64,000 nucleotides of DNA from an uncultured Acidobacteriota bacterium. Its GTDB lineage: Bacteria > Acidobacteriota > Thermoanaerobaculia > Gp7-AA8. The notes beneath the pieces are model-generated. The model ran no database searches. It had not been told where the DNA came from and saw only the letters and a program-made list of their open reading frames with translations. Shown piece after piece: positions 40,335-50,443 of this stretch (positions are counted from its first letter, which is position 1; each line of letters opens with the position of its first letter). A program made the position numbers and the translations under genes. The DNA is taken from NCBI GenBank assembly GCA_963822445.1, contig CAWGHO010000002.1, positions 1,888,001 to 1,952,000 of the forward strand. The letters run 5' to 3'.

Positions 40335-44625
<4,291 letters not shown>

Positions 44626-44628
44626 CCG

Positions 44629-44817
44629 ATGCGACGCAGAGTCACACCGCTGTCGAGGATGCCGAACGCCGATTGCCGTGCCTGTCACGGCATGGGCTCG
44701 GTGCGGATGACCGCGCACTTTTACACGGGCGACCACGAGTTCGAGGCCCCGTGCTGGGAGTGCTTCGGCAGCGACGTGAAACTGCAGTTCCCGCATCCCC
44801 CGACTTCCGATAACTGA
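44629..44817 (+). CDS. Small DnaJ-type zinc-finger protein between rpoB and rpoC
   Basis: CRACHGMG...CWECFG motifs; AAGGA 8 nt upstream; fills the intergenic gap; alternative ATG at 44659. Confidence 0.6.
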
Positions 44818-44852
44818 TTCGAACGAATTCGTCCCTACAAGGGAGGCGCAAA

Positions 44853-49094
<4,242 letters not shown>

Positions 49095-49117
49095 GCGTCA
49101 ATCTTTGCCTTACTGTG

Positions 49118-49150
49118 AACGGCGGCCGAAAGGCCGCCGTTCTTTTCTCT
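49118..49150 (+). terminator. Intrinsic terminator after rpoC
   Basis: AACGGCGGCC-gaaa-GGCCGCCGTT followed by CTTTTCT. Confidence 0.8.
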
Positions 49151-49204
49151 CTGCGCGCTCCGTGGCGGTCGGCGCCGGTAAACTGCAGGCCGGTAGGCGA
49201 CAAG

Positions 49205-50443
49205 GTGAATCGTCACAGACTTCTTCGTATCTTTATTCTGGCCGACGTCTTCTCCGTGGTTGCCGGCGTCATCGCGGCAGTCATTTTTGAAGGAACCCTG
49301 CCGGAACCGTTACGCACGTACGCCGCGACGCAAGAGCTCCATCCGTTCCTTCTGATTGTCGGACTCGTTCTCATCGTCCTGCTGATCGTCGCCTGGGTAG
49401 GACTCTGGAGGAATGCCTCGTGGGCGCCGGCCGCCTACGCAGTTGCCTGGGCCGGCTGTCTCGTCATCCTGCCATTCAGTGGGCCGTACATAGGAACGGG
49501 CATCGAAGAGATGTTCGATTTCGTGGGCACCGCTGCCGGCGGTGGAATCCTCGCGCTGCTTCTTCTCGCGATGGAGGAGCGTCGAAGCTCAGGGCCGGCC
49601 ACACTGGTAGCGAGGGATACGACGAACGACGTTGGGCAACCAAATATCAAATCGTCGCGCGTTCATCGCGCGTTGTCATGGCTGTACGGGCTCATCGCGC
49701 TGATGCTGCTCGCCCTTCCGTATGTCGCACGGACCGGCCAGGAAAAACTGCTTCCCGCAGAGATGGCAATCGCGTTGTCTCTGCCGCTGTTCTTCTTTGC
49801 CCTCGCGATCCTTCATCATTTCGTGTCGCGCGGCGCGAAGGAGCGGAAGCGCTGGGCGCGAATCGGCTCGATCGTTCTCGCTTGTTTACTAATGCCTGCT
49901 GTTCCGGTCGGCACGATCATTGGCGTCTACCTGCTGCGCAATAGTTCGTGGGAACCTGCGATGGCATGCAAGTGCGCTGAGTATCCTGACTTGCCGTTCT
50001 TGCGCGACGCGATCACGAAGCGGATTCGCGAGACGAAACGTATCCTTTCTCGACTCACCTTGCTCGAGACGAACAGCCAGGACCGTCTGCGGCTCTACGT
50101 GTGTGAAGCTTGTGGGCAATACTGGCAAACAGGACACGAATGGAACTTCGGCGACCGTGAGTACGTCTTCAAAGTGCCGGCGATCGAGTCGTCAGAGTGG
50201 CTTCGCGAGCCGTACCGTCAGCCGGCGGCCATGCTCATCTTCACCGCCGCCATGACGGACTATTTCGAGAAGAACAGGTTCGAAGAGGGCGACACGCCCT
50301 GCCGTGAAGAAGGTTGCCCGAACCGCTCGATGAAGCAGGGCCGCTTCTGCATCGATCACCATCTGGAGCAACTGCGTGCGGTAAGAATTCTTCCCGCGGT
50401 TCCACGCGGTCGCATGTTCCCGCCGTATCGAACTGAGGTATGA
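49205..50443 (+). CDS. Composite hypothetical protein: two membrane modules plus a Cys-rich module
   Basis: 4-TM block, then 3-TM block, then MACKC...CEACGQYW...C....C.......FCIDHH; the last module may start separately at 49960. Confidence 0.55.
   Translation: MNRHRLLRIFILADVFSVVAGVIAAVIFEGTLPEPLRTYAATQELHPFLLIVGLVLIVLLIVAWVGLWRNASWAPAAYAVAWAGCLVILPFSGPYIGTGIEEMFDFVGTAAGGGILALLLLAMEERRSSGPATLVARDTTNDVGQPNIKSSRVHRALSWLYGLIALMLLALPYVARTGQEKLLPAEMAIALSLPLFFFALAILHHFVSRGAKERKRWARIGSIVLACLLMPAVPVGTIIGVYLLRNSSWEPAMACKCAEYPDLPFLRDAITKRIRETKRILSRLTLLETNSQDRLRLYVCEACGQYWQTGHEWNFGDREYVFKVPAIESSEWLREPYRQPAAMLIFTAAMTDYFEKNRFEEGDTPCREEGCPNRSMKQGRFCIDHHLEQLRAVRILPAVPRGRMFPPYRTEV

Follow-up and report, generated by a model that had tools for sequence, protein, structure and literature searches.

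The small gene examined here lies on the forward strand of the window (the whole 64,000-nt stretch of acidobacterial DNA that was analysed), between the genes for the beta and beta' subunits of RNA polymerase (RNAP). Pfam matches identify L1, L10, L7/L12, RpoB and RpoC as products of the neighbouring genes, and the locus is the classical rplKAJL-rpoBC region. Its features are as follows:

40335..44625, + strand: rpoB (beta), in two frames with one extra base near 43645; Pfam Rpb2 domains
44617..44622, + strand: Shine-Dalgarno-like AAGGAA, supplied by the final two sense codons of rpoB; 6 nt separate it from the small-gene ATG
44629..44817, + strand: small zinc-finger gene, 62 codons (ATG 44629, TGA 44817); identified from its ORF, conservation, dN/dS and synteny
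44674..44697, + strand: putative first zinc knuckle, CRACHGMG, residues 16-23; C16, C19, G21 and G23 invariant in 37 sequences
44698..44751, + strand: predicted beta-hairpin between the knuckles, residues 24-41; T28, H30 and F31 invariant; AlphaFold2 strands
44752..44769, + strand: putative second zinc knuckle, CWECFG, residues 42-47; C42 and C45 invariant, W43, E44 and G47 in at least 90% of rows
44818..44852, + strand: 35-nt spacer from the small gene to rpoC, holding the rpoC Shine-Dalgarno AAGGGAGG at 44839-44846
44853..49094, + strand: rpoC (beta'), TTG start; ORF with Pfam Rpb1 domains 1-5

Coordinates and translation agree with those of a first-pass annotation, which had described a 62-codon ORF starting 3 nt after rpoB, ending 35 nt before rpoC and carrying CRACHGMG and CWECFG. 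The three nucleotides CCG separate the rpoB stop (TAG, 44623-44625) from the small-gene ATG. A scan of 44300-45100 found no promoter-like site on either strand and no terminator-like site on the + strand (one terminator-like site lies on the - strand), so that co-transcription with rpoB and rpoC is plausible. Directly after rpoC lies a 442-aa ORF (49115-50443) with no Pfam match at E <= 1e-5.

In the window, rpoB reads in two frames, 40335-43772 and 43585-44625, owing to a net gain of one base near 43645 (43641-43650) relative to its relatives in all eight alignments listed. Because the gene is essential and the assembly comprises three contigs, this frameshift is most likely an assembly error. 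The extra Cys-rich insertion that had been noted in RpoB is real: it spans 62 residues (81-142; window 40575-40760) in the N-terminal part of the protein and carries eight cysteines as CxC...CxxC...CxxC...CxxC. A weak resemblance links its first half to the beta' zinc-binding domain (E about 0.13-0.2). Among solved beta chains none matches the insert; they align solely to the conserved residues that flank it. A link between this insert and the small gene was considered and rejected, as the insert is spread phylum-wide: 190 of 201 genomes from the class carry it, as do 117 of 141 from the phylum, irrespective of the presence of the small gene, with which it does not co-vary.

Conservation, range and history of the small gene

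A search of 41 related genomes with the single window sequence recovered orthologues in 21 of the 24 same-genus genomes (E 6e-34 to 3.6e-29, 69-80% identity) and, outside the genus, matched nothing convincing. Twenty orthologues align nearly without gaps and share 28 invariant columns. Over their 190 pairs the Nei-Gojobori method gave a median dN of 0.156, a median dS of 0.779 and a dN/dS of 0.19, and variable columns at codon positions 1, 2 and 3 number 23, 24 and 55 of 62. The GC3 of the small gene is 0.82, compared with 0.79-0.89 for rpoB, rpoC and rplL. Across a wider set of 37 sequences M1, P12, C16, C19, G21, G23, T28, H30, F31, C42, C45 and N62 are invariant; H20 gives way to Q or G in divergent genera and is thus not an obligatory ligand. 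Some of the tallies given here and below include genomes flagged as unpublished (G002, G030, G125, G156, G194 and G263), of which G002 supplies one of the 20 rows of the orthologue alignment (A1) and of the dN/dS set.

The reading frame is intact in all 45 distinct loci, and 42 of them have a Shine-Dalgarno-like motif 3-13 nt ahead of the ATG. At most loci this motif is the AAGGA(A/G) of the final rpoB codons, which occurs also in genomes without the small gene and is therefore not independent evidence for it; six loci in which another element separates rpoB from the small gene carry a GGAG or GAGG of their own, 5-7 nt before the ATG. A read-through fusion with beta was also considered: the small gene is in frame with rpoB here; elsewhere 2, 4, 5 or 8 nt separate the two genes, which are then in different frames. 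With the gene out of frame in many relatives, such a fusion is not a conserved product.

In a wider search, a profile built from the 20 sequences matched 29 of 48 further genomes of the same Thermoanaerobaculia family (9 of its 22 genera) and none of the 152 genomes that represent 19 other families in the class. Across the phylum there were matches in 4 of 401 genomes, every one of them from that family. An exhaustive HMMER search of 1.84 billion cluster representatives returned seven proteins at E <= 0.001, namely two full-length divergent orthologues, three truncated or mis-called copies, one doubtful 83-aa protein and one unrelated repeat protein. A word-indexed search yielded 40 clusters, all 60-98% identical, some named 'DnaJ-class molecular chaperone' (JGI) and one, from a Thermoanaerobaculia MAG, 'hypothetical protein' (NCBI). 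Public genome contigs contributed 43 loci, all from Thermoanaerobaculia or Acidobacteriota MAGs (a 'gp7' bin among them), and the ESM Atlas contributed the small protein's own clusters together with a 60-aa Actinomycetota cluster of 893 members (score 0.93). Reading by eye 14 loci from other Acidobacteriota with long rpoB-rpoC spacing revealed no similar small Cys ORF, the extra length consisting of RpoB C-terminal extension and non-coding DNA. At L114-L120 (family f46 of the phylum), RpoB runs about 20 residues past its usual ...LDVEL(I/L)K end, and 150-200 nt of apparently non-coding DNA separate the extended rpoB from rpoC.

A chance or decaying ORF without function would fit the shortness of the small gene, its taxonomic restriction (seven matches in 1.84 billion representatives) and its failure to pass any curated family threshold; a frame intact at all 45 distinct loci, invariant cysteines and a dN/dS of 0.19 with dominant third-position variation argue so strongly the other way that, on these sequence comparisons, this reading is effectively refuted. 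By the same comparisons the gene appears to be translated and selectively maintained, and it is almost certainly a real protein gene with a zinc site. The checks proposed in the first-pass annotation (homologue search, synteny and dN/dS) recovered homologues in which all four cysteines are invariant, the rpoB-rpoC slot is kept and dN/dS is 0.19, and the annotation's proposal, a zinc-motif micro-protein gene inside the rpoB-rpoC operon, is borne out by a frame that is conserved, selected and found in the same slot in relatives.

Synteny is strict. In all 49 fetched loci (which include genomes fetched twice and represent the 45 distinct sequences) the small gene is preceded directly by the rpoB 3' end and followed by the rpoC 5' end. 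It is single-copy in each genome and occurs nowhere else; where the gene abuts rpoB, its ATG follows the rpoB stop by 2-8 nt in the loci read. We compared the rpoB-rpoC regions of 40 genomes and the window, 39 of which are complete at the junction (2 fetched loci are cut). The rpoB-rpoC gap measures 206-424 nt in the 21 bearers of the small gene (20 fetched genomes and the window), and the stretch from the small gene to rpoC differs among orthologous loci in both length and sequence. In the 18 non-bearers the gap is 2-190 nt (12-190 nt in 11 of the same family, 2-48 nt in 7 of other families) and holds no Cys ORF, in keeping with the earlier premise that rpoB and rpoC are normally adjacent.

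A maximum-likelihood tree of concatenated RpoB and RpoC (39 rows, 2859 columns, quick search with SH-aLRT support only) unites all 21 bearers within a single 24-row clade that has 99% SH-aLRT support. Three non-bearers (G160, G043 and G140) fall within or at the base of this clade, and the deeper lineages of the family and the outgroups (7 other families) are without the gene. The fewest changes on this tree are three, for example one gain and two losses; constraining the bearers to a single clade is not rejected (AU p = 0.062), so that one gain without loss is also compatible. A single gain with up to two losses fits the sequence data, and the gene appears to have arisen in the ancestor of a sub-clade of one uncultured soil Thermoanaerobaculia family and to have kept its slot since. 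As a separate observation from the alignment, a basic loop of 18-20 residues at about RpoC residue 1000 (window about 47850-47910) occurs only in the sub-clade that holds the bearers together with G053 and G160, and is absent from deeper family members and other families.

Other elements occupy the same slot in places. At L068, the sole spacing exception among the 49 loci, a 438-aa ORF without a Pfam family (L068:2720-4036) lies between the small gene and rpoC, which starts 1.4 kb downstream. In a different acidobacterial family, at L128 (G322:C5:102400-111000), an 8.3-kb insert separates rpoB from rpoC; it comprises an FG-GAP repeat ORF of 386 aa, an RHS-repeat ORF of 1829 aa and two ORFs without a Pfam family. 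Since unrelated genes have also landed between rpoB and rpoC at these two loci, position alone is weak evidence of function. REP-like double hairpins with GC-rich arms (gcgggc...gcccgc) are found in the spacers before rpoC at L007, L009, L075, L079 and others; they follow the small gene in several bearers and are present also in G140, G160 and other gaps without the gene. These hairpins may have mediated loss of the small gene.

Predicted zinc hairpin and its nearest families

From the sequence pattern, the CxxCxGxG and CxxCxG knuckles should clamp a beta-hairpin, with one zinc held by the four invariant cysteines. AlphaFold2, given the 37 sequences, returned a modest model (mean pLDDT 70, pTM 0.43) with a knuckle, hairpin strands at residues 24-31 and 34-41 (block pLDDT 71-83) and a short helix at 43-49 that starts in the second knuckle; both tails are of low confidence. 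The top Pfam match is PF00684 (DnaJ_CXXCXGXG; E 3.3e-5), at 24.5 bits against a cut-off of 32.7, and the DnaJ models of NCBIfam reach only 11-18 bits, with cut-offs of 338-585. In a profile search of PDB sequences UvrA ranked first (3ux8, E 0.0099; 2r6f, E 0.033), followed by the cysteine-rich domain of DnaJ (1exk, E 0.045). A comparison by hhalign with the C-terminal finger of the UvrA encoded in the same genome gave a marginal probability of 69% over 34 columns that include both knuckles and a shared H-F pair, compared with 12% over 21 columns for the DnaJ of the same genome.

Searches with the model, which is too small for them to be telling, found no Foldseek match in the PDB at E <= 0.001 and nothing at Z >= 2 among 48,161 chains with VIA-align. 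The sole low-rmsd local overlaps from Foldseek were with the zinc fingers of UvrA (3uwx, 2r6f and 9gxl; 27-32 columns, rmsd 2.3-2.6) and DnaJ (6jzb). A recent copy of either finger from the same genome was considered and rejected, the best other genomic place reaching only E 0.15-0.21, and no close paralogue was found in that genome. The earlier label of a DnaJ-type zinc finger therefore stands only in part: the CxxCxGxG...CxxCxG pair is present, but PF00684 scores below its cut-off (24.5 < 32.7), UvrA is nearer, and two motifs rather than four imply one zinc centre, not two. On sequence and model together, we read the protein as a probable single-centre zinc hairpin of the UvrA-Zn3/DnaJ class, which may or may not descend from either family.

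Two other leads were followed and dropped. Antiterminator Q profiles (phrog_6060 and phrog_127) matched three members at E 0.004-0.02, and PDB Q proteins matched at E 0.57-0.9; the Q profile also matches 13 of 14 control genomes, and three other places in the genome outscore the small ORF (E 0.275), so this lead was rejected as non-specific. For a phage or defence origin, PADLOC gave no match and IMG/VR only an 11-residue pattern match, and a tblastn search of 50,697 phage records matched 31, with none below E = 1 among the 25 matches listed.

Candidate roles of the micro-protein

The likeliest role, to which we give a probability of about 45% and which we infer from gene position alone, is that of an accessory or assembly factor linked to the polymerase and produced along with beta and beta'. 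The candidate roles named in the first-pass annotation (lineage-specific RNAP subunit, assembly factor or zinc/redox sensor) likewise derive from gene position. With the ATG only a few bases after the rpoB stop, ribosomes finishing beta would probably re-initiate there, so that translational coupling would tie output of the small protein to that of beta, and the protein would be made alongside beta and beta' from one mRNA. The small protein would act on the polymerase, either as a small accessory subunit or as an assembly or zinc-handling helper while beta and beta' fold and join; such an action would be the most economical explanation for a gene that has kept this slot for as long as the clade has existed. 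Its working mode might be likened to that of omega or of stand-alone DnaJ-like zinc-finger assembly factors. The polymerase works without the small protein in G043, G140 and G160, which lack the gene, and disappearance of the gene from as many as two or three nested lineages indicates a role that is accessory, not essential. A stronger form, in which the protein is a true extra lineage-specific zinc-binding RNAP subunit, born in the rpoBC operon and docking as beta and beta' meet, we regard as unlikely.

Pfam, NCBIfam, PDB sequence, Foldseek and VIA searches detected no similarity to a known RNAP subunit or factor (omega, epsilon, delta, RpoP, RpoN). Comparing bearers with non-bearers identified one near-discriminating RpoB column, with no RpoB column separating them fully, and nine RpoC columns, which merely mirror phylogeny, as the two loss lineages are without RpoC C-terminal data. 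A complex prediction combining the last 530 aa of beta and the first 400 aa of beta' from G006 (a same-genus genome) with the small protein and two Zn, with an alignment supplied for each chain, scored 0.00 (mark 0.32) and is uninformative either way.

Several alternatives bear on the same observations. The small protein could be a hitchhiker in the rpoB-rpoC spacer, a zinc protein unrelated to RNAP (a general holdase, or a thiol/redox or zinc-buffering protein) retained for the strong, constitutive expression of the operon. That the slot tolerates foreign insertions (the 438-aa ORF at L068 and the 8.3-kb FG-GAP/RHS cassette in G322), that REP-like hairpins populate many spacers, that no co-varying RpoB change was seen and that the gene was lost in up to three lineages are all consistent with this explanation; a general-purpose protein would nevertheless be expected to move or duplicate over such divergence (56-98% identity), and the exact slot is kept at all 45 distinct loci with one copy per genome, which leaves it possible but doubtful. 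Were the gene unrelated to transcription, it would still define a well-delimited new small-protein family of soil Acidobacteriota, and it would warn that a position in the rpoBC operon does not imply function.

The profile ranking (3ux8, E 0.0099; 2r6f, E 0.033), the hhalign comparison (69% over 34 columns including H-F, against 12% over 21 columns for DnaJ) and the local Foldseek overlaps (27-32 columns, rmsd 2.3-2.6) all place the UvrA C-terminal finger closest, and a nucleic-acid-facing hairpin of UvrA type, acting as a small factor close to DNA or RNA, in the transcription complex or in transcription-coupled repair, and not as an assembly helper, would suit that resemblance. Passages of PMC5053424 attribute damage discrimination to the UvrA finger and describe it as swinging aside upon DNA binding. 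All the UvrA scores are nonetheless marginal, the net charge of the small protein is about zero (7 R/K against 7 D/E by hand count), and the UvrA finger is reportedly without direct DNA binding, going by the title of Croteau 2006 as cited in PMC5053424; we judge this role quite improbable. Less probable still is a mainly cis-acting frame, in which ribosomes crossing the spacer would adjust the beta:beta' ratio or the translation of rpoC, perhaps as a sensor of zinc or cysteine supply, with the peptide secondary. Its appeal is a start tightly coupled to the rpoB stop (3 nt here, 2-8 nt where the genes abut) between genes that need a controlled ratio, but the amino-acid sequence is under purifying selection (dN/dS 0.19), nine residues of the knuckles and hairpin are invariant across 37 sequences, and the widely variable distance from the small-gene stop to rpoC, together with the latter's own Shine-Dalgarno, argues that coupling is absent on the rpoC side.

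Relation to known zinc proteins and polymerase subunits

Full-text literature searches turned up no description of a gene in the rpoB-rpoC slot of Acidobacteriota or of the small protein itself. The zinc-hairpin module is already familiar; the novelty lies in a clade-specific micro-protein that stands alone and is fixed between rpoB and rpoC. The closest resemblance is to the C-terminal finger of UvrA, which likewise joins CxxCxGxG, a beta-hairpin and CxxCxG around one Cys4 zinc and has the same hairpin H-F pair. That finger, however, is an insert in the second signature domain of UvrA, an ABC ATPase of about 950 aa (in this genome a separate 959-aa ORF elsewhere on contig C2), whereas the small protein is free-standing. 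The UvrA finger also has 19 residues between the inner cysteines compared with 22 in the small protein, whose hairpin is longer by 3, and is without the small protein's conserved tails (N-terminal RMPN; C-terminal P-x-P...TDN). With scores this marginal, the resemblance to the UvrA finger may or may not reflect common descent.

With the DnaJ cysteine-rich domain (PF00684) the small protein has the CxxCxGxG motif in common, but that domain carries four CxxCxGxG repeats and two zinc centres, compared with one CxxCxGxG, one CxxCxG and four cysteines here, and the small protein, at 62 aa, is without the J domain and HPD of DnaJ/Hsp40 (Pfam, NCBIfam). Anti-TRAP (RtpA, PF15777) is likewise a bacterial micro-protein of similar size with a DnaJ-type zinc motif; the small protein scores 14.6 bits against a threshold of 32 for PF15777 and 16.6 bits against 65 for RtpA NF058604 (E 0.0065), the match is confined to residues 36-48 (12-13 residues), and genomic context and taxon are different.

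Closer to the mode proposed here are stand-alone DnaJ-like zinc-finger assembly factors, BSD2 among them. PSA2 and ZnJ6, as described in PMC4806229 and PMC7865324, are stand-alone DnaJ-like zinc-finger proteins of plant and algal plastids that act as assembly helpers for one complex, and a dedicated helper for one complex is what we propose the small protein may be. As a young, clade-restricted zinc micro-protein, it would offer a clean case for how new partners join a very old machine, and also a case of new-gene birth inside an essential operon.

Bacterial RNAP is usually described as alpha2-beta-beta'-omega, and to our knowledge few lineage-specific extra subunits are known. Its small accessory subunits include omega, epsilon and delta in bacteria and RbpA in Actinobacteria, and archaea have the zinc-binding micro-subunits Rpo12/RpoP and Rpo10/RpoN. 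No sequence or fold similarity to any of these was found for the small protein. Like them, it is small and encoded with polymerase genes, and zinc binding (in the archaeal cases), restriction to a lineage (in several) and dispensability (in some) are features that it would share. Should it prove to be a true extra subunit, it would be a convergent bacterial counterpart of the archaeal and eukaryotic Rpo12/Rpb12 and Rpo10/Rpb10.
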